Below, piece after piece: positions 6,973-27,844 of a stretch of 40,276 bases of DNA. The stretch is from the UHGV virus genome UHGV-0069047, one strand, 5' to 3'. The stretch comes from a virus. The first letter of the stretch is position 1. Each line of letters starts with the position of its first letter. The notes beneath the pieces were generated by a model. The model had not been told where the DNA came from. It saw only the letters and a program-made list of their open reading frames with translations, and made no database searches. A program made the translations under genes and the position numbers.

Positions 6973-6995
6973 CCACGCCAGACGTGGTTTTTTTA
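6973..6995 (+). terminator. rho-independent terminator
   Basis: CCACG-ccaga-CGTGG followed by TTTTTTTT. Confidence 0.55.
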
Positions 6996-7809: not shown

Positions 7810-7853
7810 CTAGCGGCGGCACAGGGATGTGCCTTTAAATAATTCTGTACAGA

Positions 7854-7896: not shown

Positions 7897-7922
7897 ACCG
7901 AGAGTTTACATGAGGGGGAAAC

Positions 7923-8111
7923 ATGGAAATCAACATCATTACATTGCTGAAGGCCATTATTGGCGGAGCGGGCTTAGGCTTTGCCCTACCAGGCGGATTA
8001 TCTTTCCTGCTTCCTGCTTTTACTGTTACAGCTGGGATAGCCTATGCATTTGCTGTGGCTGGTGCTGTTGCACTCCCTGCTATCTATGCCGCAAAGAAGT
8101 TAGCCAACTAA
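7923..8111 (+). CDS. small hydrophobic membrane peptide (62 aa)
   Basis: Strong SD; Gly/Ala-rich, two predicted TM helices. Confidence 0.5.
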   Translation: MEINIITLLKAIIGGAGLGFALPGGLSFLLPAFTVTAGIAYAFAVAGAVALPAIYAAKKLAN

Positions 8112-8112
8112 A

Positions 8113-8445
8113 ATGCCTGATTTATCTTGGCTTGCGCCCAGAGATGCACAGCAATTGACAAGGTTTTATTTCATACTGTGCATTGCTTATCTTGCTGTTC
8201 ATCTGATATGGGATGCCGTTTGCAAAGATACGCCTCCTTTTTCTTTGGATAAGTTGCAATACAAGATGAATGAGGTTTATTCATCATCTACTTTTGCAAC
8301 CAGCGCATTCTTCATTGTTATTCTGTTCGATATGAAGAATCCACTGAGAACTTCAGATGCTTTCATATTCCCATTAATTATTGCTGCTCTAACTGGCTTT
8401 ATGATCTCATTATCAGCAATAGTGCCAAAGAAAGTAAATAACTGA
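8113..8445 (+). CDS. membrane protein (110 aa)
   Basis: ATG 1 nt after upstream stop; three hydrophobic helices; terminator follows. Confidence 0.5.
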   Translation: MPDLSWLAPRDAQQLTRFYFILCIAYLAVHLIWDAVCKDTPPFSLDKLQYKMNEVYSSSTFATSAFFIVILFDMKNPLRTSDAFIFPLIIAALTGFMISLSAIVPKKVNN

Positions 8446-8448
8446 ATA

Positions 8449-8470
8449 AGCCCGCGTTGCGGGCTTTTTT
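8449..8470 (+). terminator. rho-independent terminator
   Basis: AGCCCGC-gttg-CGGGCT followed by TTTTTT. Confidence 0.65.
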
Positions 8471-8542
8471 ATGGACGAAACAAAAGTCAGTGCTACACTC
8501 ATTGACGCCACATTGAGGTGGCTTATAGATGGAAATGTCACA

Positions 8543-8704
8543 ATGAAAAAAGCATTTGCTGCACTGTTCGTTTTGTTGTCTCTGGTAGCTTCAACTCAGG
8601 CCTTTGCCGGTCGTTGTCAGCACGACAGCGATACTGCCGCTGACGGCTCCCGCTGCGGTGGGCGTTCTGCGGATTCCCGCCCGGGCGGCGGTGGCATTCG
8701 TTAA
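8543..8704 (+). CDS. small secreted peptide (53 aa precursor, 2 Cys)
   Basis: Signal peptide MKKAFAALFVLLSLVASTQAFA then Gly/Arg/Cys-rich 30-aa tail; start at internal ATG 8543. Confidence 0.4.
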   Translation: MKKAFAALFVLLSLVASTQAFAGRCQHDSDTAADGSRCGGRSADSRPGGGGIR

Positions 8705-8726
8705 AAACAAGGCCGCGAAAGCGGCC
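8703..8726 (-). terminator. hairpin terminator for the minus-strand tail operon
   Basis: GGCCGC-gaaa-GCGGCC with T-run on the minus strand (TTGTTTTT). Confidence 0.5.
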
Positions 8727-8727
8727 T

Positions 8728-8739
8728 GTGACATGTCAC
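8728..8739. repeat. 12-bp palindrome GTGACATGTCAC (copy 1 of 3)
   Basis: Perfect palindrome; identical copies at 26283 and 28583. Confidence 0.7.
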
Positions 8740-9032
8740 GTTCCTTTTCTGAATGATAGCCGTTCGAAAAATGATGACATTCCACCGCAGACAATAGCAA
8801 AGATGATCCCACCAAAGAAGAGAAGGCCAGCCTGCCACCACTCCCACCGCCATACATCCACAGCGCCAATCATACCAACAATCGCTCCAACAAACGGAAT
8901 ATAACTCACGACAAAAGCAACGGGAGCTGCAATTATCCAGTGCAACCCCCACCATGATTCAAGCCCAGCCATAATTGCTGCCAACTGAAAAAGACCAACG
9001 ACGATATAAACAATGAATCCTATAGCTTGCAT
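8736..9032 (-). CDS. multi-TM membrane protein (98 aa)
   Basis: Hydrophobic, Trp-rich; SD before ATG; at distal end of tail operon. Confidence 0.5.
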   Translation of the reverse strand: MQAIGFIVYIVVGLFQLAAIMAGLESWWGLHWIIAAPVAFVVSYIPFVGAIVGMIGAVDVWRWEWWQAGLLFFGGIIFAIVCGGMSSFFERLSFRKGT

Positions 9033-9044
9033 GTAGTCACCTAT

Positions 9045-9218
9045 TTACCCAGTAAAAATCAGAGGCCTCCCCTCAATAAGGCTTGCAACAAGAACGACTC
9101 CCTGCACAACAAAGATGAACCAGCAAATAGCTTGAGTCTGAGGGTTAAGAAAATATTTGTAGCGGTCAATAAATAACAACCCACCAGAAATTATCACACT
9201 CAAAATAATTAAAAACAC
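9045..9218 (-). CDS. possible small membrane protein (about 57 aa, non-ATG start)
   Basis: Hand-translated ORF between the 824-aa gene and the 8736..9032 gene; hydrophobic; not in the supplied ORF track. Confidence 0.25.
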   Translation of the reverse strand: MFLIILSVIISGGLLFIDRYKYFLNPQTQAICWFIFVVQGVVLVASLIEGRPLIFTG

Positions 9219-9227
9219 AACACTTCC

Positions 9228-11702: not shown

Positions 11703-11707
11703 TTAAT

Positions 11708-13510
11708 TTAACCTCTCAAGAAACACGCCACAGCGACATCAAACAGGCTGGAATCCTGTATTGCCTGCTCACTTTCCCTGTTCGCTTCATCCAGTACTTC
11801 ACGCGCGCTGCGCGATTGTGGATTACCATCATCATCCAGCACGGTGATTATCATGTCAGGTGATTCAAGCAGCGAGTCTTCAGCTATGCGCAGATCAATA
11901 TCTCCCGCCTGATCCGCCATCATTTTTTGTTCTGCCTGTTGCAATATTTTATCAGGCTCAAAAGGAGCTACTTCGTCTGGCGTCCTGACCTCTGCTGTTT
12001 TATAGAATGAAACAGCCTGAGCATTAAGTTCACTTTCTGCCTGTTGTCTCCGAGCCAGTTCTGCTCGAGCTTCAAAAAACTGACCGCCAGGCTCGTGCGG
12101 TGCCAACGCGTTACGAGAAAATTCCAGGCGTTCTTGTGCCTGCCGGATTCGTTGGTCAATATCGCGAAGTCTGGCCTGTTTATCTGATCGAGCACGAGAT
12201 AAAGCCTTACCGCTACCGGTTGGCTCTTCTGCAAGAATTTGTGCGCGCTGTTCAGTGAGATTTTCAATAATTCGTTGGCTATTAGCGATTTCAGACTGGT
12301 AAACCTGTCTATCGCCACGCGGCAAAAGCTGCGCGGCCTGTTCTTCAAGCAACCGATTTTCTATAGCGCGCGCCGTTACTCCATCATCTACAGATGACAG
12401 AGCCTCATTAACTGCCTGAGACAGCAGACTCTTGCGCCCAGGAATTTCACTGAAAGATGCAGACTCAACAATGCTGGCAACGTCTACATCTCTCCCCTGG
12501 CTAACATCAGACATGGCTTTTCGCAGAGCCTGAATGTGAGAATTACGCGAAAGCACGTTGATCGGCACGCCAGGAGCAATATCAATTTCAGCATGATGAG
12601 CGGCATTCGCCGCCAGTGCAGCATCGATATCAACTGGTGAAAAATTTGGTGTGCTTGTAGACTCGCCGCGAGAGTTAATAAATCTGCCGACACCACCAAA
12701 CGCCACCCCAAGAACAGCATCAATAGCAATTGCCTGTCGATCCAACACATCATACTGGTTAGCCATTTCGCTATAGCCACCATCACGAAGCGTTTTTGCA
12801 GTAAGCCCACGCTGTGCCATACCGAACGCAATATTTGTACCTGCGGCATAGGCAATATCTGGCGTTGCACGTACTGCTGTTGCTGCGGCGCGTCGCACTG
12901 AACTCTCACCCGTCCGCGCAAGCTGAGCCGCCACACCTTCCGCCAGCGCACCACCAGCACGTAACCCGAGGCTCATAGGGATCAGTGTTCCGGCACCAGC
13001 AGTAATGCCCTGCACTAATCCCGCTTCCTGCGCCGTCCTGAAATCAACACCCTGTGCTGTCAGCCGTTCAAACTCAGAAAAACCCTGTAGCGAAGTTACC
13101 GCCGCTGCACCTCCGACAGGACCACCGAGCGTTGTACCGACAACAGCCTGCCCGCCCATATCGAACAACCCATAAAGAACCTGCCCGGCGGTTCCGGTTG
13201 TCGCGGCATCAGGCGTCAGCCGCTTAACCTGCTGCTCTGCTAGTTTTCTCTGCTCAGCAATGTATGAAACTGAAGTGTCATTGAGCAAGGTGTTTTCGTT
13301 AACAAACTGAGCAATCGGGGATACGATTTTATCCATCCCTGCCCATAGCAACTGATCTGGCTTTGCCACCAGCCCGGAGTACAAACCAGACAATGCCGCC
13401 CCTACAGCATTGTCGAAAAAACCAACATCGCTGTTAAAGCCAGCTGGATTTGATGCTGCTTCGTCAAGCTGCTGATTCTGGTTTACTGGATTAAGGCCAA
13501 AGTAACTCAT
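11708..13510 (-). CDS. internal virion protein (600 aa)
   Basis: Gly/Ala-rich N-terminal half, charged coiled-coil C-terminal half; position in virion module. Confidence 0.5.
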   Translation of the reverse strand: MSYFGLNPVNQNQQLDEAASNPAGFNSDVGFFDNAVGAALSGLYSGLVAKPDQLLWAGMDKIVSPIAQFVNENTLLNDTSVSYIAEQRKLAEQQVKRLTPDAATTGTAGQVLYGLFDMGGQAVVGTTLGGPVGGAAAVTSLQGFSEFERLTAQGVDFRTAQEAGLVQGITAGAGTLIPMSLGLRAGGALAEGVAAQLARTGESSVRRAAATAVRATPDIAYAAGTNIAFGMAQRGLTAKTLRDGGYSEMANQYDVLDRQAIAIDAVLGVAFGGVGRFINSRGESTSTPNFSPVDIDAALAANAAHHAEIDIAPGVPINVLSRNSHIQALRKAMSDVSQGRDVDVASIVESASFSEIPGRKSLLSQAVNEALSSVDDGVTARAIENRLLEEQAAQLLPRGDRQVYQSEIANSQRIIENLTEQRAQILAEEPTGSGKALSRARSDKQARLRDIDQRIRQAQERLEFSRNALAPHEPGGQFFEARAELARRQQAESELNAQAVSFYKTAEVRTPDEVAPFEPDKILQQAEQKMMADQAGDIDLRIAEDSLLESPDMIITVLDDDGNPQSRSAREVLDEANRESEQAIQDSSLFDVAVACFLRG

Positions 13511-16020
13511 TGCGGAATATCTCCGGAGAATCTCTGACGCTTCTGTGTCAGATCAAGAACAACAGGAGAACCATCATCTTTCAGCAGATAACCAGTACCA
13601 AGTTTCACCAGGTACTGACTATCGCCGTAACTTTGCAAACCATACTGACCAGGCGGTGTTTTTATCCCTGTGCCAACAACTTGTTCATTCCAAGCCTGAT
13701 TAACCTGCTTATCGAATTGCTCTGCAGACATTCCCCACGGCAAAAGAACATTCCCCATTCCGTTATAGTCATGCACGCCACCTGTAGCTACGTTAACAGC
13801 CTGTTTCCAGATATCATTGTCAATTTCGCCTGATACCACGCCTTTTTTCGCCATCACACCAGCGTAATAGTCCTTTGCGATCTCGTATGCCATTGATGCC
13901 CCCTGAGCATCACCAGCAAATGCATCCTTCACCATGTCAGAAAACTCAAGGCGAAGATCAGCATCTTTAGGCATCGGAATACCTTTCGCGTCATCAGTAC
14001 CTTTACGAGCCGCCGCGCCAGCAAGAATTGTCTGCGCAGCGGTTTCTGGAGACACGGAAACATCCGGATTAAACCAGTTTTTTTCTGCCAAAATACCACC
14101 TGGCTTATCCATCAGTATCCCGGCAACGGCAGCAGATGGAGCGTTGGCACTGATCTGCTGTAGTGCTGACATATACACCTGCCCACCACCAGTGCTCTGC
14201 CTGATGGTATCGAGATATGCTGCCTGTTGGGAAACGGGCGCATCACGAAAGAAAACACCGATCTGATTGGCCTCGTCTTTGGAAAAGAACGTCAGTGGAG
14301 TGCCATATGACTTAGCAAGGTCACTGACCTGAGCAGCACGCAAGGCAACGCTCTGTCCAAAGTTATCCTTATTGCTCATGTCGATAGGCTTTGCCTGTCC
14401 GGCGGCAAGAGAGAACTGTACAGGATCAGCCTGTCTCTGCTTTATCACCTGACTTGCAGCCGACACAACGTTGTCATAAAGAGCGGCTCGTGCCGCATAA
14501 CCCTCCCCTGTCTCACCAGTATCCGGGCGTAATTGCTCAACATATGCTGTAATGCTGCTTGTCGGCATGTTGCGGAAAGAGCCTATATACTGTCCGGCGA
14601 TTTGCGTATTTCTGAACTCGGTATATCGCAGGTTTCCTTCTCTGACTCCATAAGCTGCAATAAAATCAGCCTCACCAGGTGGGTTAGGAAATTCAACGCC
14701 ACGCATATACGCAGCTGTCGCATCGCGAACTTGGCTGTCAATCATCGTTTTATATTCAGCCTGCTGCTGCCGACGCAGTTGATCCGCCTGTCGCATAAAA
14801 CTTGCCTGCGCCTCAGGAGATGCCGCATCGAATGCTGCATTACCGGTATAGCGTTTGGTGTTGGTTGGAATTGTTGATAAACCAAGTGCTGCACTGACAC
14901 CAGCAGTTAGCTGCTGATCACTGTATGGCTGGCTACCGTTCTCATGATGGATAATGGCTGCACAAAGCGCCTTCAGGGTATCAGGATTAGATGCATCGAG
15001 AGGCTCATCAGCAGAAACGCCAAGTTGTTCGCACACTGCTTTGATATACGACATAGTGTCATTTTTATCAGTAGGCGGTGCCCAGCGATTAATTATCTCG
15101 CTGACGGTATCAATACCCTGCCTCTGATACGACATCAGGTTCCGCCCTAATGCACGAATCCCGTGTTCAGGTGTTTCGAATTTAGCAAATCGACCATCAT
15201 CACCGGTCTGGCCTACCCACGGATTGGTTTTGCTGTATTCGAGATTTCCTGGGTTATTGTTGCGTATGCCACGGGCACGCTCGGAAGAGTCACTATCTGC
15301 TACAGCACGGCGAGCTCCAGCAGCAGTATCACTTAACTCGCCATTACTTTGGATGAATGCGGTCGCATTGTTTGCCGACCACTGGGACAATGCTGCATCA
15401 GCAACCTTCTCTTTAAACTCGATTTTCTTGGCCTGGATTTGCTCGTCGCTCCAGCCATGCGCAATGCCGTAATCCTCAATTTGCTGGAAAGTTTGCTTAT
15501 TAGCCAATATGTATGCGGCGTTGTCGCCATACAATGCTGCGGCATTTTTACCATTGTTCAGCAGTGTCGCCTGAAACTGGCCTTCTTCGTAGGCATTAAT
15601 TTGCCCTATCTCGTGTCGCCCGGCCTGCGTAGTGAACTGAATGCGCTGCTGCTGCGCCTGCTGCATGAAAGCATTACGAGCCTGTTCATCCGGCAGCGAC
15701 ATAGCCAGTTGTTCGACCTGAGCATCAAACTGCTGCGTATACTCATGGCCTTTTCCAATAGCATTTTTCCCTTTCAGGTTAAGCAATCCTGTTTCAGGAT
15801 TATTCAGCAGATCGCTGCTTATCTGACTGAGGTTAAGAGATGCCTCCTGAGCCAGAGCGATATTGGCACGCTGTTTTGCCTGCCCCAAAACATCAATTGC
15901 CTCTGTCCCTGCCCGAACAAAAGCATCACCAATACCTTGCTGAGAAAACGTCTGCAAGCCTGCTGACTGGACTCCACGACTCTCAACCTGACGTCCGGAT
16001 ACTGTTGGTACGACTGGCAT
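13507..16020 (-). CDS. internal virion protein, possibly with a cell-wall-active domain
   Basis: Start taken at ATG 16020 overlapping upstream stop (TAATG); conserved block GIRNNNPGNL...; domain assignment uncertain. Confidence 0.5.
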   Translation of the reverse strand: MPVVPTVSGRQVESRGVQSAGLQTFSQQGIGDAFVRAGTEAIDVLGQAKQRANIALAQEASLNLSQISSDLLNNPETGLLNLKGKNAIGKGHEYTQQFDAQVEQLAMSLPDEQARNAFMQQAQQQRIQFTTQAGRHEIGQINAYEEGQFQATLLNNGKNAAALYGDNAAYILANKQTFQQIEDYGIAHGWSDEQIQAKKIEFKEKVADAALSQWSANNATAFIQSNGELSDTAAGARRAVADSDSSERARGIRNNNPGNLEYSKTNPWVGQTGDDGRFAKFETPEHGIRALGRNLMSYQRQGIDTVSEIINRWAPPTDKNDTMSYIKAVCEQLGVSADEPLDASNPDTLKALCAAIIHHENGSQPYSDQQLTAGVSAALGLSTIPTNTKRYTGNAAFDAASPEAQASFMRQADQLRRQQQAEYKTMIDSQVRDATAAYMRGVEFPNPPGEADFIAAYGVREGNLRYTEFRNTQIAGQYIGSFRNMPTSSITAYVEQLRPDTGETGEGYAARAALYDNVVSAASQVIKQRQADPVQFSLAAGQAKPIDMSNKDNFGQSVALRAAQVSDLAKSYGTPLTFFSKDEANQIGVFFRDAPVSQQAAYLDTIRQSTGGGQVYMSALQQISANAPSAAVAGILMDKPGGILAEKNWFNPDVSVSPETAAQTILAGAAARKGTDDAKGIPMPKDADLRLEFSDMVKDAFAGDAQGASMAYEIAKDYYAGVMAKKGVVSGEIDNDIWKQAVNVATGGVHDYNGMGNVLLPWGMSAEQFDKQVNQAWNEQVVGTGIKTPPGQYGLQSYGDSQYLVKLGTGYLLKDDGSPVVLDLTQKRQRFSGDIPQ

Positions 16021-16565
16021 TATGATCCTCCGGGTAATCTGGTTCCTGCTGCTGCCCCGATTGGCGCAGGAGTGCTTTGAGTAAACGGATTCCACGTCCC
16101 ACCAAACATCTGGTACGCACCGTATGCCTTCAGAGGCGCAGTGAGCAATGTTGTTGCTGCTCCCACATTCCCCTGTTTACGGGCTGAACTGGCTTCTGCT
16201 TTATAGTTGGCAGCCTGAACCTGATAACCGTAAGCCTCGCGTTGCGCGTTATTCACCGTCGTCAGCGAATCAAGAGCGCCAAACTGGGCAGTGTCGCCAA
16301 ATATATCCAGCGCGTTACCTGTAGATAAATCAGCGCCGGTAGCCCCCATTGTCGCCGCCTGTGTACCAAGCCGCTGTCGGGTCTCTCTGCGCCGTTGCTC
16401 AGCTTCAGCGTTACCTCTGTTTATTGCATCATTTGCCTGAGCTGTGGCTATATCTGCGTTCGCTTCTGCAACCTTCGAGGCATACTTTCCCTGTTGGTAC
16501 TGGGTGTATGCCTGAATGCCACTCATGGCGAGCATTGCGCCACCAGCAATAACCGGATCGCACAT
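16020..16565 (-). CDS. virion protein (181 aa)
   Basis: Ala/Gln-rich small protein inside structural operon. Confidence 0.45.
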   Translation of the reverse strand: MCDPVIAGGAMLAMSGIQAYTQYQQGKYASKVAEANADIATAQANDAINRGNAEAEQRRRETRQRLGTQAATMGATGADLSTGNALDIFGDTAQFGALDSLTTVNNAQREAYGYQVQAANYKAEASSARKQGNVGAATTLLTAPLKAYGAYQMFGGTWNPFTQSTPAPIGAAAGTRLPGGS

Positions 16566-17029
16566 TATTTTCTCTCCATGTGAAATCTGTGGAAATTAAG
16601 ACCAAGAGCACCATAAGGCGCGGCTTCTTCAAGCCTGAATCCAAGCCAGTGCAGCCATGCTTTGGCAACATGGTTTCGCTCGTCGACGTAGTTTTCCAGG
16701 CGCGGATAAACTGCCAGCATCTGCTGCAATACAGGTCGGCAGTGGCGAAGAAATGTCTTCTGATATTTTTCAATACGGCTGGTCCCGACCAGCCATGGCG
16801 TACCATTGCCACCGATCATTGACGCCGGAGATACACCAAACATGGTTACCAGTTCTCCGTTCGCGAACCCTGACCAGGACATAGTCGCAGTGCGAAGACC
16901 AACGCGCAGCGCATCTTCGGTAGTCATCAGCGATACCGCATACAGTTCGTCAATATCAGCCTGACGAACATCCGGCAAAATCATCTGAAGATGCTCTTCG
17001 GTAGTGGGAATAATTTGAACTTCGATCAT
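16565..17029 (-). CDS. virion-associated protein (154 aa)
   Basis: Position between tubular protein B-like gene and internal virion proteins. Confidence 0.4.
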   Translation of the reverse strand: MIEVQIIPTTEEHLQMILPDVRQADIDELYAVSLMTTEDALRVGLRTATMSWSGFANGELVTMFGVSPASMIGGNGTPWLVGTSRIEKYQKTFLRHCRPVLQQMLAVYPRLENYVDERNHVAKAWLHWLGFRLEEAAPYGALGLNFHRFHMERK

Positions 17030-19500
17030 CAGAATCCCCCAACAGTAAGGCGAGGAATAACGGCAAGAACAGACAGCGGCAACGGGTCAAGCTGACGGAT
17101 TTTTACACGTCCGTTTTTGCCCCAGTTACTGTCCAGTTTCACTTCTACTTTTCCGGTAGCATCATCAACAGGATCATCGTAGAACTCGAATTCACGCTGT
17201 GGATATTCGTACCATTTACCGCCGGGCGTAGTCGCCCAGATGCCGCGACTGGCATTCACAACCAGAGTAACTGACGGGATCGCCTGTTTTTTGTCCAGCA
17301 GCGTTTCCTGTCCGTTAATGTTGATATCCAGTGTTTCGAATTCAGCAGTTATTGGCAGGCCGATGTGCACAACAGCCCCCGGTGATTCCAGCGTGACGGC
17401 ACCTCCGGAAACCACTTTTTGTGGTTCCACGTTCGCATCAGAGAGGATGTTTACGGTCTGGCCTTCAAGATGAGACAAGCCGCCAAATGTCCGGCGCGCC
17501 ATCTGCCAGTTCGTGGTGGCCGCATTCCTGAGGGATGGCGGGACGTTCCTGTTGGCACGAACAACTACAGCGGTATTGCTTGTTACAGAAATAATGTCGC
17601 AACGTAATTCTTTTGACACTTCATCGCCAGTACCAGGATCAGTTACGGTATAAGGGAACTGTAGTTGCGCACCGACATCACTACTGGTGAAGTACGCACC
17701 ACCAGAAACACTGATTGTATATTCCGCGCTGTAATCCCATTCACCAGAACCACCAGTGATGGTCATCGTTCTGTCAGACGTATTTCTTCCATCATAGCTA
17801 AGGCCAGAATCAACAAAGAAAGCATCTTCATCGCTGGTAAATAAACGGCTGGACAGTCTCTCGATGTATCTCACTGTTTGCCCGTTAACGATTCGGTTAA
17901 CGACGAAATACACCGCATCTTCATTTCCTTCGCTGATACTGCATGTGCTTTCATATTTTCCGGTACTGGACTGTGGTGCCCATGCAAAAACCTGTTGATC
18001 ACGCAAATAGGTCATCACCAGTAATTTACCGTCATCACGAATGCAGAAGGCGCTGGAGTAAGGGACAATAGAGAAGCACCAGTCAACAATGCTGTGCTTC
18101 TGAAAAAGATGATTAGCAAGGATGGTCAGGTCGTTCCCCTGATAGCCGTCAACATCGAATGAGTAGGCCAGATCACGGACAACGCTGCCTTTCTCCTGGA
18201 CGAACAGAGCAATATTCGCCACAGCAATTGGTGGGACGTTGCTTGAGCCATTTGATCCCTGAGAGCTGAATGCAAATGATGATGGGGTTAACACTTTGTT
18301 CTGGTCGCCGGTGATGACGTACTCACCTCCGGAAGTCAGTGCCACCAGCGAACCGACATCAATCAGGTGGCGGATCTCATTAACCTGACGCCCGGCATAG
18401 GTGTAGATAATTCTGTCGTCATCCTGCGTAGGATTGCTTTTGCCAAAATCCTTATAATCCCCGGTACGGCTGGCCCAGATAGTCTGAGGGAACGCAGTCG
18501 ATGCGGCGAAGTAAAGACGTTGTTGATAATAAACAACAGTGCCAGGATAACCATTAACACTGTTCCAGGCATATTTAGCCCATTTATAGCTGGCATTATC
18601 CTCGCCAACGACCTGCGAAGGGATATAGGAAATCACCTCGGCAGTTGCAGTAGTGCCATTTACAGCAGTTATACGGGCAATGCCAAAACCACTGTGCAGA
18701 TACTCCCACTCAATGCCAGTATCATCATCACCGGAGCCGCCCCAGCCATCCCATGATGTGCCTTCTGTATGCGAAGGGCGCAAAGTGCCTGTTTTGCCTG
18801 CTGTAACGGCGCGATAGTAGTTACTGTCTGCACGGCGAATATCGCCAATCGACGTACTCTTACTGGTTTCCCATACCGGTACTGAATCCACTGCTGGCTG
18901 TTCCAGATAGAACAATTTGCCTACCTGCTCCGCGCCAAAAATAGAGGCGCTTGCCGTTAACGTAATTGTCCCGGTGCTGGCGCTGGCATAAACCGTCACT
19001 GACTCGTCAATATTGATATCTTCAAATGGCCCGTTCTTCGTTACCACATCAACCAGTTGCCAGTTGTCATGCGCATAGCGGCGCAACTCTTTCGGCGGGT
19101 ATGCCGGATGAACCAGCGTAAGCACGTCTGCGCTTTGCGTGAATTTAATTCTGAACAGATCGGCTTCAGTATATGGCGTGGCAATTTCATAAATAACATT
19201 GCTGCTGTTCAGCACCAACGCACCATCTTTGATAACGCGCATGTACTGGTGTCCGAACTCCAGAGCATAGGTCTGAACCGTCGAGAACTGGAACGGGATC
19301 AGGCGGCATTTCCGATTTGGGTATTTGGCGGCACCAACAAAACGCGTACCAGGTCGATTCTCAACGCCGCCATACTGCCGCACGATAAAGTTATCGCACT
19401 TGCGCAATGCCACCTGGTACTTCGCCATGTCGATACGACCATACAACGATGGTCCAATCTCACCACCGGCAAAGCTGGGCTGGATCCAACTGATAGCCAT
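17029..19500 (-). CDS. tail tubular protein B-like (nozzle)
   Basis: 823 aa; size, position and N-terminal pattern (MAISWIQPSFAGGEIGPS) resemble T7 gp12-type proteins. Confidence 0.6.
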   Translation of the reverse strand: MAISWIQPSFAGGEIGPSLYGRIDMAKYQVALRKCDNFIVRQYGGVENRPGTRFVGAAKYPNRKCRLIPFQFSTVQTYALEFGHQYMRVIKDGALVLNSSNVIYEIATPYTEADLFRIKFTQSADVLTLVHPAYPPKELRRYAHDNWQLVDVVTKNGPFEDINIDESVTVYASASTGTITLTASASIFGAEQVGKLFYLEQPAVDSVPVWETSKSTSIGDIRRADSNYYRAVTAGKTGTLRPSHTEGTSWDGWGGSGDDDTGIEWEYLHSGFGIARITAVNGTTATAEVISYIPSQVVGEDNASYKWAKYAWNSVNGYPGTVVYYQQRLYFAASTAFPQTIWASRTGDYKDFGKSNPTQDDDRIIYTYAGRQVNEIRHLIDVGSLVALTSGGEYVITGDQNKVLTPSSFAFSSQGSNGSSNVPPIAVANIALFVQEKGSVVRDLAYSFDVDGYQGNDLTILANHLFQKHSIVDWCFSIVPYSSAFCIRDDGKLLVMTYLRDQQVFAWAPQSSTGKYESTCSISEGNEDAVYFVVNRIVNGQTVRYIERLSSRLFTSDEDAFFVDSGLSYDGRNTSDRTMTITGGSGEWDYSAEYTISVSGGAYFTSSDVGAQLQFPYTVTDPGTGDEVSKELRCDIISVTSNTAVVVRANRNVPPSLRNAATTNWQMARRTFGGLSHLEGQTVNILSDANVEPQKVVSGGAVTLESPGAVVHIGLPITAEFETLDININGQETLLDKKQAIPSVTLVVNASRGIWATTPGGKWYEYPQREFEFYDDPVDDATGKVEVKLDSNWGKNGRVKIRQLDPLPLSVLAVIPRLTVGGF

Positions 19501-21313: not shown

Positions 21314-22306
21314 TTACACCACGCGGGCTTCTGTTTCCAGAAGTGCATCAGTTTCACGGATTGGTACACCACGGAATGACGTCCACCACTCGCCTTCAGT
21401 CTCTTTTACGCTAATCGCCAGAGATGTTTTCTCCAGAGACTGCAGATCAAGAGCCTGGCCTACAGTGCGGTTCATGTAGAACACCGGGCGACCCATGCCA
21501 CGGTTTGGAATGCGATGCAGTGCTTTAACCATCAACTTCGCAATATTTGCGGCAGAGGAAGGTTCTGAAAGATTGCTGACATCGATGTTTGCAATGCGAA
21601 CAACATAACGCCAGTCACGCAGAGCAAGTCCGTTATCCCATTTGTAATGGGTGCGATAGCCTTCGTACTTGCCGCCATTAGCATCTTCCAGTGTCACCTG
21701 GCCTTTATCTTCCATCTGGATTCCAGCCTTCTGCCCTTTCGGGAAGATGCCATGCACGGTGTTTTCTCCCCACACCACTAACCAGATTGAGGTGTTATCT
21801 GTACCCGTGCCACCAGCATCAATGATGTTCTGAGCATTACCCGCAGACAGGCTGGAATAGCGGGAGGACAGTCCCATAAACTGCTGAGGGTTAACGCTGG
21901 AATCACCATAAAACAGAGTCTGCGCCATCTGCTGATTCATCGCTTCAATAAATGCGCGGTCTTCAGACAGGCGGAATTCGGCGGTATTGCCGTTCAGATC
22001 AGCCAGTGACTTATCGACTTCCGCATAGGTTTCCAGCATGCCAACGGAATCGGTGACCTGCACTGTGGTTGATTTGCTTGGCTGTACGCCATAGTTCAGC
22101 AAACGCCAGGTGGCTGAAGGTAAACCAGAACGAATGGTGGTTCGGTGTCCGGTAGGAAGGTTCCCTTCGACAAAAGGCATATCCTGAAGGATCGGGTTAG
22201 TTTGACCGAGAAGCTCGATAATCTTATCGACTTTCCCGTTTGGATCGACGCGCTTACCCCAGTCAGCCAGCGTTAGCGCAGTTAAGCCTTTAACAGCCAT
22301 TGTCAT
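21314..22306 (-). CDS. major capsid protein
   Basis: 330 aa, follows scaffold gene; typical size and position. Confidence 0.7.
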   Translation of the reverse strand: MTMAVKGLTALTLADWGKRVDPNGKVDKIIELLGQTNPILQDMPFVEGNLPTGHRTTIRSGLPSATWRLLNYGVQPSKSTTVQVTDSVGMLETYAEVDKSLADLNGNTAEFRLSEDRAFIEAMNQQMAQTLFYGDSSVNPQQFMGLSSRYSSLSAGNAQNIIDAGGTGTDNTSIWLVVWGENTVHGIFPKGQKAGIQMEDKGQVTLEDANGGKYEGYRTHYKWDNGLALRDWRYVVRIANIDVSNLSEPSSAANIAKLMVKALHRIPNRGMGRPVFYMNRTVGQALDLQSLEKTSLAISVKETEGEWWTSFRGVPIRETDALLETEARVV

Positions 22307-22314
22307 TTCCTCTC

Positions 22315-23016
22315 TTATTTGCCATAGAGCACTTCGGCCGCACTACGCTGGCCTTCATTACCACCGGTGACCATGCCATCTTCAGACATCGCCTTTCCGA
22401 TTTTCACGAACGTCTTGACCAGATCAGGGTGATTACCCAGCCCGGTGGTGTTCAGATATTCTTTGAGTTCAGGTGTCCCGAACTGGTCAAGCGCACGCTG
22501 TGCGGCGCTAAGGTTAGAAATCAACTTGTCGCCACCGATTTCTTTGTCAGCTTTTACATCAGCAGCCCACTGCTCGGTCGTTTTCTGCCAGGCTTCTGCC
22601 TGGCGCTGCTGAACACCTGCCAGAATCTTCGGATAAGCATCAACCAGCTTTTGCGCTTGCTCGTTGGTCAGGTTAAGTTCTCGCGCCACCGGCTCGAATT
22701 CCTTCAACGCTTCTGTATCCAGCTCTACGCCTTCGGCAGCCTGAAACTCGTACTTCTCCGGCGCACCCTCTGGTTTATCGCCGTCCTTTTTTTCATCCTG
22801 CTTATCGTTTTCATGCTTTTTGTCATCAGCAGGTTTATCGCCATCAGCAACAGGTTGTGGCTTATCACCTTCCTGTTGTGATGGATCACCAGCTGGATCA
22901 GGGTTATCACCTGCAGGCGCTGACGGTTCTGACGCAGCCGGAGCTGCCCCACCATCGACTTGTTGCTCATTGCAAAGACGGCGATACAGCAAACGCTCAA
23001 ATAAACTCATGATCAC
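22315..23016 (-). CDS. scaffolding protein
   Basis: Acidic, Pro/Ala/Asp-rich low-complexity N-terminus and helical C-terminus, between portal and capsid. Confidence 0.6.
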   Translation of the reverse strand: MIMSLFERLLYRRLCNEQQVDGGAAPAASEPSAPAGDNPDPAGDPSQQEGDKPQPVADGDKPADDKKHENDKQDEKKDGDKPEGAPEKYEFQAAEGVELDTEALKEFEPVARELNLTNEQAQKLVDAYPKILAGVQQRQAEAWQKTTEQWAADVKADKEIGGDKLISNLSAAQRALDQFGTPELKEYLNTTGLGNHPDLVKTFVKIGKAMSEDGMVTGGNEGQRSAAEVLYGK

Positions 23017-23309
23017 TCCTGTTCACTGGCCTCTTTGGCCATCTTCAAATACTGTTCAGGGCAATGCGCCATAACGCGCTGAAACAGTTCCAGCGCCAGA
23101 TTGCGTTGCCCCTCATTAAATGCCATTGCCATAGCGTCCATCGGTGAGATAGCGGAAAACACACGACCTTTCTCCAGCACAGACCAGACAACGCGACGCC
23201 CCTGTTCACTGCTCATGACAAAGCGAATGTCATCAATTTCACGCTGTGCCATGTCACGTTGCTTACGGGCGTTTTCTTCTTTCAGTTGATCGTCTTCGTA
23301 ATCTGTCAT
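23013..23309 (-). CDS. hypothetical head-assembly protein (98 aa)
   Basis: Overlapping starts/stops with portal and scaffold genes. Confidence 0.45.
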   Translation of the reverse strand: MTDYEDDQLKEENARKQRDMAQREIDDIRFVMSSEQGRRVVWSVLEKGRVFSAISPMDAMAMAFNEGQRNLALELFQRVMAHCPEQYLKMAKEASEQE

Positions 23310-24985
23310 TGTGATTGCCCACCCTGACCACTAACTGCATTCGCCATAGCTGACAAAACACTCGGATCCGAAGTTTTAGCTTCGCTTAGCGTCTTGGCAC
23401 CCTGTGCCGCCGCCATCCCCATCGCCATCATTTGTTGCTGCTGTTGCTGCTGTGCCCGTTGCTGGCGAGCATGCTCAACCTGTTCCTGCGGAACAATGAC
23501 GGTTGGAGACACTCCGGACATATCAGCGAATGCATCGATCGCCTGATCAACGTTGAGTTTGTCGAGAGCTTCTGGTTTCGCTTGCGCAAGTTGACCAATG
23601 AAGTTAACCGTGGACGCCAGACTGGACAGGCCGATAGACTTCTGCGCCTGAGCCATGACGGAAATGTATTCGACCTTCAGGGGCATGCCTTCCATCGCGT
23701 CAGGCGGTGGCGGCAGCATGTTTTTACGCACCATCATCGAGAAAGCGCGGTCAATGAGAGGATTAAGACATTCGTCGTTCAGACGCTCCAGAACCGGCCC
23801 CAACATCAGAAGTTTTTCTTCTTTCATTTCGATCACCGCTTCAACAGGCATCGAGCGGGTATTGATGTTCTGCAACATCATGAACAGATCGACAAAGTAG
23901 GCGCTGTTAATGATTTGACGAGTGTCCTGAATGTCTGCCACCAAATCTGCTGTACTGGGATTAACCAGATAAGCAGGCCTGAAGCCATCCTGACCAGTAA
24001 TCTGATCGATATACGTGATGTCGCCAGGAAGAAGGGAGGCGCGCTGATTCTTGAGGGAAGTCGGAGCAACCATCGGCGGATTGGTGGCTTTATCAATCAA
24101 CTGCGACTTGCGCTTCTGGAGAAGCTGCAATGCCTTAACAGGTCCAAGCGCCAGCATGCCCGGGCATGATGATCCATAAACATCTTCGCCGTTAACTTCC
24201 CAGCGCGGAGCCATAATTGGAAACTCATCGAATCCGGACTCACGCAACAACTTGTCGTTATCGCCACCAACCTCGTAATAAACCGATTTGAATGGCTTGT
24301 TCTTGCTATCCAGCTTCGATGTATCGCGGTCAATGTTCGGGTAAACCGAATGCATCACTTCAATCCACTTCTCGTAGGTGCCGCTTTCCCACATGCTTTT
24401 TACGGATTCGCTGACGTTATTTAGCCCGAACTCCTGAACAAGCTGACGAACAGTCATAGAGAACTTGCGAAAACAGGTGTCCACACTGCCACGAGGTGAG
24501 TTAGCCAGGTAGTAACTGCCTATCGGGAATGGCATTGTGCGAATGATGTCCTCGTCATCCTCCAGCACTGCCATTGCACCAGTGCTGTATGTGCCGAGGC
24601 TTCCGTATAACTGCGGCAGCGACTGATAGAGATTCGACTTATTGAACATATCGTTCATGCGGTTCTGCACCGCCTCAAGCCACAACTTAACAGGGCCATA
24701 ATCCATCATTTCAGGATCTGGCGTAGCCAGGCGAAACCACGGACGCGCGGGGCTTGTGATGCCTGACATCATGCCGCTGGCGAGAGTGCGCGCCGCCATA
24801 GTCCCGGTCGAATCAATAATGCGTGTATTGCGTCGATCGTTACGGTTGACCTCAGAAGTCAGAAAGCGGGAACCACGCGGGTTGATGTAATCACTCAACT
24901 CGCGCCAGTGCGGCTCGAACGACTGACGCTCGCTTTCAAGTTGTGCGAACTGTTTGTTCAATCGCTCTTTAGTTGTTTCCGCCAT
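23306..24985 (-). CDS. portal (head-to-tail connector) protein
   Basis: 559 aa; resembles podovirus head-to-tail connector family; poly-Gln C-terminal tail; SD GGAG. Confidence 0.75.
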   Translation of the reverse strand: MAETTKERLNKQFAQLESERQSFEPHWRELSDYINPRGSRFLTSEVNRNDRRNTRIIDSTGTMAARTLASGMMSGITSPARPWFRLATPDPEMMDYGPVKLWLEAVQNRMNDMFNKSNLYQSLPQLYGSLGTYSTGAMAVLEDDEDIIRTMPFPIGSYYLANSPRGSVDTCFRKFSMTVRQLVQEFGLNNVSESVKSMWESGTYEKWIEVMHSVYPNIDRDTSKLDSKNKPFKSVYYEVGGDNDKLLRESGFDEFPIMAPRWEVNGEDVYGSSCPGMLALGPVKALQLLQKRKSQLIDKATNPPMVAPTSLKNQRASLLPGDITYIDQITGQDGFRPAYLVNPSTADLVADIQDTRQIINSAYFVDLFMMLQNINTRSMPVEAVIEMKEEKLLMLGPVLERLNDECLNPLIDRAFSMMVRKNMLPPPPDAMEGMPLKVEYISVMAQAQKSIGLSSLASTVNFIGQLAQAKPEALDKLNVDQAIDAFADMSGVSPTVIVPQEQVEHARQQRAQQQQQQQMMAMGMAAAQGAKTLSEAKTSDPSVLSAMANAVSGQGGQSQ

Positions 24986-24999
24986 TTCAATGACTCCGG

Positions 25000-25206
25000 T
25001 TACTGACCAAGCAGCGTTTTACCGCTGGTATTAGCAGTTGATGTGTCGCCCTGAGAACCGGTAAGCAGCGTAGAACTACGACCAGCAGCAGCGCGACGGC
25101 GACGAGTTTCTTCGTCGCGGGCATCAACAACGGCGGCATCCTGCTCCTGTGGTGCTGCCTGAACTTCTGGTGTTGCAGGCACTGATGGTGAGCTACCCAT
25201 GCACAT
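25000..25206 (-). CDS. possible small Ala/Gln-rich protein upstream of portal
   Basis: Same initiation context as portal (GGAGTCATTGA-ATG); low-complexity product. Confidence 0.3.
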   Translation of the reverse strand: MCMGSSPSVPATPEVQAAPQEQDAAVVDARDEETRRRRAAAGRSSTLLTGSQGDTSTANTSGKTLLGQ

Positions 25207-25296
25207 ATCAATGACTCCGTACGCAATTAAATTATTACCAATTTAACCATATATGATTTATTTATCGTAGATAGTTGACATTTAACGCACAAATTA

Positions 25297-25311
25297 TTAC
25301 CTTTCAGGTAA
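25297..25311. promoter_or_regulatory. operator-like palindrome TTACC-TTTCA-GGTAA
   Basis: Identical to site at 6486; TTGACA hexamer 17 nt upstream. Confidence 0.5.
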
Positions 25312-25631
25312 GCAAAGAGTTCATTCCGGTTATTAACCTGACTGGCTTGTCGTTAAATTGAACAGGTGGAGTGAGCTTTTATTTTGAGCAGTACGGCGTA
25401 TGGCACATGCGCCGATAGCGGTCTGGATACGTTTAAGGGGCACCCTCCCTTGCTCGGGCAAACGAACCAGGTAGCCGGAATGTGCAAGCCCCGTTCATAT
25501 CGTCGGACCGAGGACTCACCATCCTGGCGATTCGGTGTGACGCCTCGGAAGAGACGAGGGTACAACGATGAGAGCATTTATGGAGCCGCGACAAAGTGTG
25601 GCGCCTTAACAGGCTAAGTGCTCTCAGCGTT

Positions 25632-25708
25632 GTGGCATTAGCTCAGTTTGACAGAGCAACCGCCTTCTAAGCGGTTGGTCGCAGGTTCGAATCCTGCATG
25701 CCACGCCA
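25632..25708 (+). tRNA. tRNA-Arg (anticodon UCU), phage-encoded
   Basis: Hand-folded cloverleaf: 7-bp acceptor GTGGCAT/ATGCCAC, D-stem GCTC/GAGC, anticodon stem ACCGC/GCGGT with loop CTTCTAA, T-arm GCAGG-TTCGAAT-CCTGC, encoded CCA. Confidence 0.85.
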
Positions 25709-25752
25709 GAATCACGCCTAAGGACCGTGATGCCAGAAGTTCCAGGTGCTTG

Positions 25753-25796
25753 GCGGTGATAGTTTCCCTTGAAGGACTATCACCGCCCTTTTTACA
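25753..25796 (+). terminator. rho-independent terminator after tRNA
   Basis: 12-bp stem GGCGGTGATAGT/ACTATCACCGCC followed by CTTTTT. Confidence 0.6.
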
Positions 25797-25871
25797 GCAG
25801 GACGCCATTGCGATGACTTCATGCTGTAAACCCGTGCAGCCACGGAAGGCAGAACTCATTGCTTCCAGTTC

Positions 25872-25895
25872 GCCCGGTTCGCCGGGCATTTTTTT
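25872..25895 (+). terminator. terminator or attenuator hairpin abutting the next gene's SD
   Basis: GCCCGG-ttcg-CCGGGC followed by ATTTTTTT, then AAGGTGAG SD and ATG 25907. Confidence 0.55.
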
Positions 25896-25906
25896 AAGGT
25901 GAGATT

Positions 25907-26278
25907 ATGAACGACCAGCAAATCGAAAAAGAAATCGTTGAGAAAGGCAAAACGGCACCGCGCGTTACGCCAGACCATATCGAAGGCATTATTGCTCAGG
26001 AGGCATATTTCACAGCAGAAGATGGTGCCTTTGGCAAAGCCATAAAAGCGAAACATACTGGCGGAGAGGTAAACTACCAGCCGCACGAATCACTTTCTCT
26101 GCTGACGTTCTGCGTCCTGGTGCTGCGCAACGGCTTCACCGTCACCGGAGAGAGCGCCTGTGCAAGCCAGGAAAACTTTGATGCAGAAATTGGTCGGAAG
26201 ATTGCCCGGCAGAATGCTGTAAACAAAATCTGGATGCTCGAAGGTTACTTGCTGAAGCAGAAGCTAAGCGAGCAATAA
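25907..26278 (+). CDS. conserved hypothetical phage moron protein (123 aa)
   Basis: Strong SD; plus-strand gene inside minus-strand late operon; possibly gp49-like family, from memory only. Confidence 0.55.
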   Translation: MNDQQIEKEIVEKGKTAPRVTPDHIEGIIAQEAYFTAEDGAFGKAIKAKHTGGEVNYQPHESLSLLTFCVLVLRNGFTVTGESACASQENFDAEIGRKIARQNAVNKIWMLEGYLLKQKLSEQ

Positions 26279-26282
26279 CACC

Positions 26283-26294
26283 GTGACATGTCAC
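26283..26294. repeat. 12-bp palindrome GTGACATGTCAC (copy 2 of 3)
   Basis: Perfect palindrome 5 nt after stop of the 25907..26278 gene. Confidence 0.7.
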
Positions 26295-26298
26295 AAAC

Positions 26299-26326
26299 AG
26301 CCAGCCGATGAGCTGGCTTTGTTTTA
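26299..26326 (+). terminator. rho-independent terminator
   Basis: AGCCAGC-cgatga-GCTGGCT followed by TTGTTTTA. Confidence 0.6.
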
Positions 26327-26368
26327 TCCTCATCAGAGGATATCAACGACATTATCCCCACCAGCGGA

Positions 26369-27844
26369 TTAAGCATATGGATCGTAATCTGTGATGGCCT
26401 TGCCTTGCTGGTTCTGCTGCCCGGGAATTCGCAGACGCTTCGACACAGGGAACGCAAACGTCAGCAGTAGCGCATCGCCTTTACCAGGAGAACGCCCAAG
26501 CCGCTCCTTGATATCTTCCTTCGGTTCGATAACGATTTTACCGTCCACTCGAACTTTGTACTCTGCCGCAGACAGGTCGTCCGCTGTTTCCTGGTCATCC
26601 AGCATGCCGCCCAGCCTCAGCCATGTCTTGCATGAGTTGAACATCTCCCCACGCTTGTTGAGCATCTGCGGGTCAGTAGACGCGCCACCGAACGGAACAA
26701 GTTGCCATGTGCGCCCCCAACCATCACCGATTGACTTCAGACCGGTACCGTAACCGAAGTCGATGAACACCGCGTCAGCCTGATACTGGTCTTCAAAGTC
26801 AGCGATACGCTTCGCCATAATCAGATCGTCGGTAGTCTTGTTGCCAGTCCACAGCACCTTACTGTGTAGCCCCTGCCGCAGGTATATCACCGCGTCATCA
26901 ACGCCTGAATATGCCGGGTCAACACCGATTATCACCGGAGCATGCGCCACCTGCGCAGCGGTTACCACCCGTTTCATTGCCTCATCAGTAAGACCGGTAG
27001 GGATAAACTGCAATTCAGATGCATCAGGGAATATGCCGCGCACACGGATTTTAACGAAGTCGCTGTCTTCCCCGTAGTCATCGACCCATTTCTGCAACTG
27101 CTGTTTGTTAGTGCCTTCCACCGTCCGGCTGTCAATCTGCGCAGTTTTCCAGCGGTGTTTATATTTGCGGAAACATTCGCGGAAACGCCCGGTGTTACGT
27201 GTAGGGTTTCCGAACGCCACCCAGATAATCTCAGTGTCTTCGTCCGTAAGCGCACCCTCAGCAACTTCCCACACCAGATCCGCAATGTTCGACGCTTCAT
27301 CGAATACCACGATGATGCGTTTGCGCTCGTTGTGTAGTCCGGCGAATGCCTCAGTGTTGTGCTCAGACCAGGGGATTGCGTCAGCTCGCCACCGCTTGTC
27401 GTGCCCAGGATCATTGCTGTACATCGCGGTAGCGGTACAGGTAAACCAGTCTTTCGTGATAGCAAGGTTCGACCACTTGATAATTTCCGGCCAGGTCTTC
27501 GTTCGTAGCTGGTTGTCGGTGTTGGCGGTCACCACGACCTTACAATCCTCGCAAGTGGACATGCCCCAGTTGATCAGCATTGAGATGAATGCGGATTTAC
27601 CAATACCGTGACCAGAAGCGCGTGCCAGCATAAGCGGCTGATAGCGCGTCTCTGGATTCTGCAGGTGATCACGTATCTCTCGGAACGCATCAGCCTGCCA
27701 CTGACGTGGACCGGTGGCATGTGCCAGTTCAGTCCCCTCTTCCCCCCACGGGAACGCATAGAGGGCATAGCCAAGCGGATCGTGAGTGAACCCTGCAATA
27801 TCCTCGATCAACTGCTCTTCAGGAGATAACGCTGCATCTGTCAC
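26369..27844 (-). CDS. terminase large subunit
   Basis: 491 aa; N-terminal ATPase-like and C-terminal nuclease-like regions; start overlaps terS stop. Confidence 0.8.
   Translation of the reverse strand: MTDAALSPEEQLIEDIAGFTHDPLGYALYAFPWGEEGTELAHATGPRQWQADAFREIRDHLQNPETRYQPLMLARASGHGIGKSAFISMLINWGMSTCEDCKVVVTANTDNQLRTKTWPEIIKWSNLAITKDWFTCTATAMYSNDPGHDKRWRADAIPWSEHNTEAFAGLHNERKRIIVVFDEASNIADLVWEVAEGALTDEDTEIIWVAFGNPTRNTGRFRECFRKYKHRWKTAQIDSRTVEGTNKQQLQKWVDDYGEDSDFVKIRVRGIFPDASELQFIPTGLTDEAMKRVVTAAQVAHAPVIIGVDPAYSGVDDAVIYLRQGLHSKVLWTGNKTTDDLIMAKRIADFEDQYQADAVFIDFGYGTGLKSIGDGWGRTWQLVPFGGASTDPQMLNKRGEMFNSCKTWLRLGGMLDDQETADDLSAAEYKVRVDGKIVIEPKEDIKERLGRSPGKGDALLLTFAFPVSKRLRIPGQQNQQGKAITDYDPYA

Follow-up and report, generated by a model that had tools for sequence, protein, structure and literature searches.

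Here we show that UHGV virus genome UHGV-0069047, a stretch of 40,276 nucleotides (nt; hereafter the window) from a phiV10/epsilon15-type podophage (Uetakevirus) that is 96-98% identical to known phages and prophages, holds two RNA genes within one plus-strand transcription unit, namely a conserved structured RNA and, behind it, a tRNA-Arg with anticodon UCU. The structured RNA takes up about 245 nt 5' of the tRNA, comprises a core followed by a long hairpin termed P6 (coordinates in Table 1), and represents a new and widespread RNA family whose fold is supported by covariation. This family is new to Rfam 15, and the records that we inspected either leave the RNA unannotated or mark it as a hypothetical protein. 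The interest of the locus lies in this RNA and not in the tRNA-Arg, which is ordinary, already known, and annotated in related phage and prophage records. The original prediction for this region, made by a model from the sequence, had set a tRNA behind about 300 nt of unexplained non-coding sequence and had allowed for either a degenerate second tRNA or another structured RNA there; the latter guess was correct but understated, given a large conserved family that is shared with unrelated phages.

Evaluating this upstream sequence for coding potential, we found only short overlapping open reading frames (ORFs), in line with that prediction, which had staked its case on the absence of a conserved protein. 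No frame stays open among 26 homologues, several of these have stops in all frames on one or both strands, and their variable segments differ in length by all classes modulo 3. A small protein gene might be read into a 77-amino-acid (aa) ORF with a TTG start at 25384-25617 and into the hypothetical proteins annotated across the element in some records, and a decayed second tRNA had been suggested, but the lack of a conserved frame, the indels in all classes modulo 3, a conservation that follows helices, and the failure of both ARAGORN and Rfam to call a tRNA in this upstream sequence exclude either reading. The GenBank ORFs labelled "hypothetical protein" that are laid over the RNA in L131 (3943-4311; mEp460_037) and L007 (2101-2262) are probably false gene calls, and such calls over the RNA should end in annotation pipelines whichever function it turns out to have.

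A covariance model built from homologues (R1) scored the core in the window at 156.5 bits (E about 3e-41) and found one copy per locus, with the exception of L024, which has a second, degenerate one. Rfam 15, on the other hand, gave nothing over 25390-25631 at E up to 10 (24900-26400 scanned) and likewise nothing over the copy in phage cdtI, and a scan of 15 loci at Rfam gathering thresholds returned only tRNAs, C4, isrK, and int-alpA, all outside the element. Among these, the C4 antisense RNA and isrK matches of cdtI (L001; 777-864 and 889-965, minus strand) lie inside the annotated antirepressor coding sequence (177-1325). Of five sequence strings of the RNA, none had a literature occurrence that we could find, with a small risk of an earlier description.

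The fold was evaluated in two sets of sequences, a MAFFT alignment of 26 representatives (A2) and 62 distinct model-aligned sequences. Paired cells made up 95.4% in A2 and 94.8% in the 62 sequences, falling to 32-46% and 31-42%, respectively, when the partners were slid, and 15 pairs in each set showed compensatory change, with 84 compensatory cells in A2 (shuffled mean 24) and 184 in the 62-sequence set (shuffled mean 47). Helix by helix, 32 of the 62 sequences have G-C as the fifth pair of P1 and 29 have A-U; in P2, which encloses a variable hairpin (P2a), pairing reaches 99.7% and 16 sequences show a change from C-G to U-A; and P4 is 99.2% paired with compensatory changes in three of its four pairs. 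The loop of P4 forms a pseudoknot that is 100% paired in A2 and whose variable pair is C-G in 55 and A-U in 7 of the 62 sequences, with no mismatch. The hairpin that the original prediction had given as an example (CCTCG-GAAGAGA-CGAGG) proved to be helix P5. P6 varies in its apex, its total length among homologues ranging from 44 to 271 nt, and 28 different arm pairs keep complementarity (for example GAUGAGAGCA/UGCUCUCAGC versus AGGUAAGAGCA/UGCUCUUUCC); its closing G at 25632 doubles as position 1 of the tRNA. The 19-nt stretch GGUAGCCGGAAUGUGCAAG was identical in the first seven phages aligned and served afterwards as a search anchor. In a free-base search, with GGUAGCCGGAA and AAG fixed and UGUGC left free, only 1 of 24 true matches deviated in UGUGC.

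Two other ideas about the core were tried and dropped. Long-range pairing of the P1 loop GCACA with UGUGC of the conserved 19-nt stretch, which RNAalifold preferred, was rejected on the grounds that the local P1 stem co-varies perfectly and that the natural variants L133 (UUUGC) and L152 (GAACA) are uncompensated, and the RfaH ops element (GGCGGTAGCGTG) was rejected by eye, as the likeness needs a 1-nt gap and is absent in E. coli variants.

The RNA is found far beyond the phages to which the window is related. A BLAST search with 25200-25900 showed the approximately 245 nt 5' of the tRNA to be 80-87% identical to non-coding DNA of unrelated temperate phages, including the lambdoids cdtI, mEp460, 2H10, and Stx2c- and Stx2a-converting phages, as well as P1, P7, D6, SJ46, RCS47, Salmonella phage SPN1S, and Klebsiella and Enterobacter phages. 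At least 120 viral contigs of IMG/VR carry it, as do 591 plasmids, which are mostly 80-145 kb long and non-mobilizable, features that suggest P1-like phage-plasmids. Scanning 185,579 species genomes, we recovered 24 Enterobacterales species and two chance matches elsewhere, and 1263 of 5426 complete E. coli genomes were positive, such that the family would add a conserved pseudoknotted RNA to phage P1 and to the prophages of about a quarter of complete E. coli genomes. Prophage CPS-53 of K-12 also has the yfdPQR genes and has lost the element, so K-12 data are of no help here. In a family otherwise restricted to Enterobacterales, Stenotrophomonas phage vB_SmeS_BUCT708 (L006), named for its recorded host, has a typical copy behind a cI-like gene; it may be worth checking whether this host is rightly assigned or the RNA was transferred recently.

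In L024, two core copies (3993-4156 and 4800-4961, minus strand), one of them degenerate (110.6 bits), flank an insert of three reverse ORFs, which separates the predicted early-left promoter from the early-left genes. Hairpins resembling P6 (CAAC-…AGAGCA … UGCUCU…-GUUG) stand in two tandem copies in L101 and upstream of the core in L023, L097, and L007, behaving as a repeated, movable module, and the apices in L097 and L101 bear T-arm-like GGUUCGAUUCC hairpins. A site acting at the level of DNA, for example a recombination or module junction or an insertion hot spot kept for exchange between mosaic phages, would account for such hairpins, for the flanked insert in L024, and for the position of the element at module boundaries in mosaic phages. 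It would leave unexplained a strand-specific RNA pairing with G-U pairs, a pseudoknot, and compensatory changes, none of which a double-stranded DNA site calls for, as well as an orientation that, in every phage context we inspected, followed the direction of local transcription, and we regard it as very improbable.

Turning to the tRNA partner, ARAGORN returned a single tRNA for the whole window, a tRNA-Arg with anticodon tct on the plus strand at 25632-25708, and the Rfam tRNA model RF00005 scored it at 70.4 bits (E 5.6e-15; threshold 29), confirming the complete tRNA that had been predicted. It does sit between the portal and large terminase genes as described, with the correction that the RNA/tRNA unit runs in the direction opposite to both. 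The prediction had also held that this is a phage copy and not an integration target, which is borne out by comparison with argU of K-12: the two share, along with other phage tRNA-Arg(UCU), the anticodon, T-arm, and overall cloverleaf, but differ by compensatory changes in the acceptor stem (GUGGCAU/AUGCCAC versus GCGCCCU/AGGGCGC) and the anticodon stem (CCGCC/GGCGG versus CGACC/GGUCG), and these paired changes in two stems mark the tRNA-Arg as a separate phage gene. An integration target would be identical to argU, or nearly so, and lie at a prophage end beside an integrase gene, whereas this tRNA lies between portal and terminase genes, is annotated as a phage gene in related records, and comes from a phage whose relatives integrate at guaA (PMC9782041).

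One peculiarity of the window tRNA is its D-loop (25647-25651), which has AGUUUGACA versus AGU(U/C)GGAUA in the tRNAs of SPN1S and L023 and in host argU. Position 18 is U in the window tRNA only, the compared relatives having the conserved G18, and this change could weaken the contact between D-loop and T-loop.

Because AGA makes up 6.7 per 1000 codons in 17 long ORFs of the window, and E. coli genes use it at about 2 per 1000, codon supply by the tRNA-Arg is plausible. The original prediction had proposed comparing AGA use in late genes with that of the host. Within the window, AGA codons gather in the long tail and injection genes (36 in five ORFs; window 3730-19500) and in some early genes, and are entirely missing from the coat, scaffold, portal, and large terminase genes (21314-27844). 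One could imagine the structured RNA to be a helper of tRNA expression, a leader or trailer by which phage tRNAs for the rare codons AGA and AUA would be made, processed, or kept stable and which in lambdoids would persist beside degenerate tRNA remnants, as it adjoins either tRNA-Arg(UCU) or a CAU-anticodon tRNA annotated as tRNA-Ile2, overlaps position 1 of the tRNA through P6, and occurs beside this raised AGA use. We consider this improbable, as a real tRNA is missing beside most copies (of 19 loci scanned with ARAGORN, 18 had none, and a second scan placed one beside the element in just 4 of 23), conservation is higher in the core than in the tRNA-like domains described below, and ordinary tRNA genes need no pseudoknotted leader of 245 nt.

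Loci without a tRNA after P6 usually have a substitute. There the conserved 3' end of P6, GUUGUGGU, is perfectly complementary to ACCACAAC located 70-150 nt downstream, a pairing that is kept over at least 10 families of unrelated intervening sequence, and the domain so closed has a D-like arm (for example GCGC-AGGCUGAU-GCGC) and, beside the 3' strand, a T-like arm (GCCGG-AGAUCAGCA-CCGGC). Such tRNA-like domains replace the tRNA in most lambdoid and some podophage loci; neither ARAGORN nor Rfam calls them, and the cloverleaf fold of the cdtI domain is not significant (z = -1.66). A tRNA or tRNA mimic thus borders the core in nearly every case, which suggests that RNase P and other tRNA-processing enzymes may define the ends of the RNA.

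Among the lambdoids, at least six lineages, which differ in both their repressors and their early-left genes, share the order cI-like gene, element, early-left genes, all on one strand. In cdtI, L011, and L033 the repressor gene is followed by a terminator and then a promoter of the form TTGAC(A/C)-16/17-(-10), with the element starting 45-50 nt past the -10 (about 117 nt in L074), and in cdtI the stretch leading from the element to the first early gene contains a terminator with a 12-bp stem and no promoter-like site. None of the downstream ORFs tested in three lambdoid lineages gave an N-like Pfam match, and a 2025 study of lambdoids with a yfdP/Q/R-like early-left operon reported N to be absent and guessed at a put-like mechanism (PMC12315714). 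The RNA is a concrete candidate for the means of early-left expression in many lambdoids without N, some of which carry Shiga toxin.

In P1 and D6 the element stands about 15 nt 3' of a tRNA with anticodon CAU (annotated as tRNA-Ile2 in P1), being situated in P1 within the C1-controlled ban operon, immediately 5' of ban, and in D6 ahead of orf6-orf5-lpa-pacA. Its neighbouring genes are non-essential in the P1 CRISPR interference essentiality table, in which the element itself is not listed; a preprint on the Pas small RNA and a paper on phage ZX5 proved unrelated to it.

Upstream of the element in the window, a -35 and a weak -10 probably make up a promoter for the RNA/tRNA unit. Both a TTGAC(A/C) block and a ATTATTACC...GGTAA block are conserved 5' of the element in 13 of the 13 podophage-type loci compared, and a promoter scan of the window did not list the site because its -10 is weak. 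An operator-like palindrome overlaps this -10. Exact ATTATTACC occurs in the window only at 25231 and 25293, and TTACC-N5-GGTAA occurs 10 times versus 0.08 expected, including one site (34761) in an AT-rich stretch that we read as the immunity region. TTACC-N5-GGTAA is probably the operator to which the phage repressor would bind, and it would mark early promoters. Across all three phage groups, the promoter of the element is an early one under annotated or inferred repressor control (palindrome in the window, predicted early-left promoter PL in lambdoids, C1 in P1), and behind these annotated or predicted early promoters the element constantly lies in the sense orientation.

Downstream, podophage loci follow the order tRNA or substitute, conserved hairpin, terminators T1 and T2, and variable cargo, the hairpin AUCACG-CCUAAGGAC-CGUGAU recurring in other loci after the tRNA or tRNA-like domain. 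The promoter scan found no promoter-like site between T1 and the 123-aa cargo ORF of the window. Of 120 distinct contexts, 101 have a terminator-like sense-strand hairpin at most 900 nt downstream, as counted by a fold-based scan that replaced a first strict scan, which was too stringent.

A likeness to the put RNAs of phage HK022 lies in helix P1, which shares A-CGGCG…CAUG-CGUCG-nn-AGCG with HK022 putL and with the annotated putL-like RNA of HK639. The P1 consensus CGGCR-N5-25-CAUGYGYCG has one match over 6.5 kb of HK022, at putL (expected 0.01), and one over 18 kb of HK639, inside the annotated putL-like RNA (expected 0.03). The motif at the base of put stem I (CGGCG/CGUCG and the CAUG bulge with U28) is thereby present in P1, and in the cryo-electron microscopy structure of put with polymerase it is U28, in CAUG, that enters the beta' zinc-binding domain, where it is essential (PMC9378689).

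We tentatively favour, at rather less than an even chance, the reading that the element acts, while still being transcribed, as a leader RNA that would alter RNA polymerase for put-like processive antitermination or anti-pausing. Pointing to it are the PL-leader position ahead of terminators in lambdoids that appear to lack N, the put motif, a boxA in L086 (see below), and the long stem of T1. An early promoter carrying the phage operator palindrome would drive the RNA/tRNA unit, and the emerging RNA would fold and bind the transcribing host RNA polymerase as HK022 put RNAs do, rendering it resistant to pausing, intrinsic terminators, and Rho throughout the long untranslated leader and on into genes further downstream. 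In lambdoids in which no N-like gene was found, the element, 45-50 nt past the -10 of the predicted PL, would take the role of N/nutL or putL. The flanking tRNA or tRNA-like domain would serve as an RNase P cut site that parts the RNA from the rest of the transcript, and the long-stemmed T1, together with T2, would stop the modified polymerase before it enters the terminase gene in the antisense direction; stems of at least 14 bp resisted processive antitermination in the conAn system (PMC10325885). If the RNA does bind polymerase, it would widen the very small set of RNA-only antiterminators and offer a second architecture to set beside the cryo-electron microscopy structure of put.

Several observations weigh against a polymerase-modifying leader. 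The put likeness is a short motif, with putR having no CAUG; a search of HK022 and HK639 with model R1 at E up to 10 came back empty; and a scan for intermediates with put gave only the tight put family and chance matches. We therefore rejected membership in the put family as it is defined, keeping only the short motif, and the element may be a distant or convergent relative. In P1 the element lies about 2.3 kb into the operon and not at its start, the window promoter is weak by consensus and inferred only, and about 16% of contexts have no sense terminator within 900 nt. Podophage loci resemble a self-contained gene, with promoter, RNA, tRNA or tRNA-like domain, and two terminators, L101 has no downstream ORF on the strand of the RNA, and the cargo ORFs of L082 and L097 apparently have their own operator and promoter. 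Finally, the tRNA or tRNA-like domain that constantly accompanies the element suggests that it is cut out as a discrete and stable species, for which a cis-acting antiterminator has no obvious need.

These last points fit a stand-alone RNA of about 245 nt that tRNA-processing enzymes would excise from the early transcript, and that would then accumulate and act in trans by binding a conserved partner in the host, whether protein or RNA. RNase P would cleave where the tRNA or tRNA-like domain follows, while in P1 and D6 the 5' end would be freed by 3' processing of the upstream tRNA, and the product might take part in host takeover, in counter-defence, or in assisting the rare-codon tRNA expressed along with it; it would be a new early phage RNA effector. 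A phage regulatory RNA processed by RNase P has a precedent in C4 RNA of P1 and P7. A neighbour of the right kind is nearly always there (tRNA-Arg in podophages, the tRNA annotated as tRNA-Ile2 in P1/D6, GUUGUGGU/ACCACAAC elsewhere), the self-contained podophage loci and the cargo-less L101 suit such a gene, and strong conservation, as in the 19 nt identical in the first seven phages, fits a conserved host partner. A freely placed RNA gene would not, however, be expected at a fixed site after the predicted PL, always in the sense of the operon, in many mosaic lambdoids, nor are the tRNA-like domains recognised by ARAGORN or Rfam or, in cdtI, significant as cloverleaves. We regard a trans-acting RNA as the main rival of the leader reading and as somewhat less probable. 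Processing as such does not exclude the cis model, as put-type RNA can remain bound to polymerase after cleavage from the transcript (PMC9378689).

Returning to the leader reading, the element shares with put the lambdoid niche 3' of an early-left promoter where no N was seen, hosts among the Enterobacterales, and terminators that follow. This niche is that of the lambdoid family members and not of the window, which comes from a podophage, and the element, unlike put, is also present in podophage and P1-type genomes. Where put is a left/right pair of RNAs of about 70 nt with two stem-loops and an A9-G35 platform, the element has one copy per genome of 165-245 nt, with five helices and a pseudoknot over about 165 nt, to which a long hairpin and a partner, either a tRNA or tRNA-like, are added; a BLAST search of the element against HK022 gave nothing. 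Read as an early-leader RNA of phages, it would combine a put-like motif with a different and much larger architecture, and the chance that it is a new class is substantial. More broadly, it comes close to an even chance, without quite reaching it, that the RNA and its tRNA-like partner form a new class of phage non-coding RNA, made as the lytic programme begins and directed at some conserved machine of the host, acting either on polymerase in a manner unlike put or in trans as an RNA-only takeover or counter-defence factor. P1-type, N-less lambdoid (including Stx-converting), and epsilon15-type phages would, with the same near-even probability, all make this class, any trans form following release by RNase P.

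Other known leaders offer partial parallels. With lambda N/nut and rrn boxA leaders the element has in common its position at the start of the early-left operon, but it has no boxB, and the downstream ORFs tested yielded no N-like protein, which sets it apart from a nut site. The 3' arm of P6 starts with UGCUCU(UU) and resembles boxA, and yet a NusB/NusE site there is unlikely because these bases are paired in P6 and their partners co-vary. In L086, the place of P6 directly after the core (about 3340-3385) is taken by a hairpin and then a perfect rrn-type boxA (UGCUCUUUAACAAU), next to which a reverse-oriented ORF is inserted. EAR and conAn2 of pLS20 are likewise structured leader RNAs of at least 100 nt that start long mobile-element operons, and EAR/conAn operons end in a long-stem terminator resistant to antitermination (PMC10325885), comparable with the 14 pairs of T1 here; they are Gram-positive, however, have no sequence or Rfam relation to the element, and in the case of conAn also need a protein partner.

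A riboswitch-like sensor was also weighed, in which the core would bind a metabolite or signal and GUUG would pair either with the upstream CAAC, closing P6, or with CCACAAC downstream. Invariant joining regions reminiscent of an aptamer, the pseudoknot, and the 5' leader position are in keeping with it, as are the two mutually exclusive partners of GUUG(UGG) in loci without a tRNA. But no terminator or antiterminator evidently overlaps the core, P6 has no U-tract, no Rfam riboswitch matches, and the element also precedes a tRNA and lies mid-operon in P1, all of which makes a sensor very doubtful.

Ornate RNAs that lie by tRNAs or have a tRNA-like domain include ROOL, GOLLD, and YrlA, a tRNA-like Y RNA. 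The element resembles them in being a prophage-encoded ornate RNA beside a tRNA or with a tRNA-like domain, but it is much smaller than ROOL or GOLLD, is restricted to Enterobacterales, has no Rfam match at E up to 10, and has no rsr/Ro gene nearby. The "M3-like RNA" of HK639 is unrelated to it.

Table 1. Features of the RNA/tRNA unit and its surroundings. Positions refer to the window, except for the tRNA-like domains, which belong to the loci named.
Feature	Position	Strand	Remarks
Portal gene	23306-24985	-	
Further ATTATTACC half-site	25231-25239		
Probable promoter of RNA/tRNA unit	25275..25303	+	-35 TTGACA 25275-25280; 17-nt spacer; weak -10 TACCTT 25298-25303
Operator-like palindrome TTACCTTTCAGGTAA	25297..25311		Overlaps -10
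TTACC-N5-GGTAA sites, 15 bp each	6486, 6867, 7882, 25297, 28491, 32368, 32430, 34761, 35473, 35535		
Core of conserved structured RNA	25390..25566	+	Model R1; no Rfam match; no conserved ORF
Helix P1	25394-25401 with 25407-25414	+	Conserved apex UAUGGCACAUG; carries putL-like motif A-CGGCG...CAUG-CGCCG
Helix P2	25418-25419 with 25474-25475; 25422-25425 with 25468-25471	+	Encloses P2a
Variable hairpin P2a	25430-25433 with 25461-25464	+	4/4 pairs with compensatory changes
Conserved stretch GGUAGCCGGAAUGUGCAAG	25470..25488	+	Identical in nearly every copy recovered without fixing it
Helix P4	25511-25514 with 25522-25525 (span 25511..25525)	+	Loop CUCACCA
Pseudoknot	P4 loop CACC 25517-25520 with GGUG 25534-25537	+	Variable-pair covariation
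Helix P5	25543-25547 with 25555-25559	+	CCUCG-GAAGAGA-CGAGG (25543-25559); loop GAAGAG conserved; 4/5 pairs compensatory
Long hairpin P6	25563..25632; arms 25563-25576 / 25619-25632	+	Variable apex; arm covariation
tRNA-Arg(UCU)	25632..25708	+	CCA encoded; ARAGORN, Rfam, comparison with relatives
Conserved hairpin AUCACG-CCUAAGGAC-CGUGAU	25711..25731	+	Directly 3' of tRNA
Intrinsic terminator T1	25752..25797	+	14-pair stem, then CUUUUU
Intrinsic terminator T2	25872..25896	+	GCCCGG-UUCG-CCGGGC then AUUUUUUU; directly 5' of ribosome-binding site of next ORF
Cargo ORF (orf123), 123 aa	25907..26278	+	Pfam Phage_gp49_66
Large terminase gene	26369-27844	-	
tRNA-like domains	L001 3233-3350; L007, L028, L041, L082, L148, L151, L157 downstream of P6		GUUGUGGU/ACCACAAC closure

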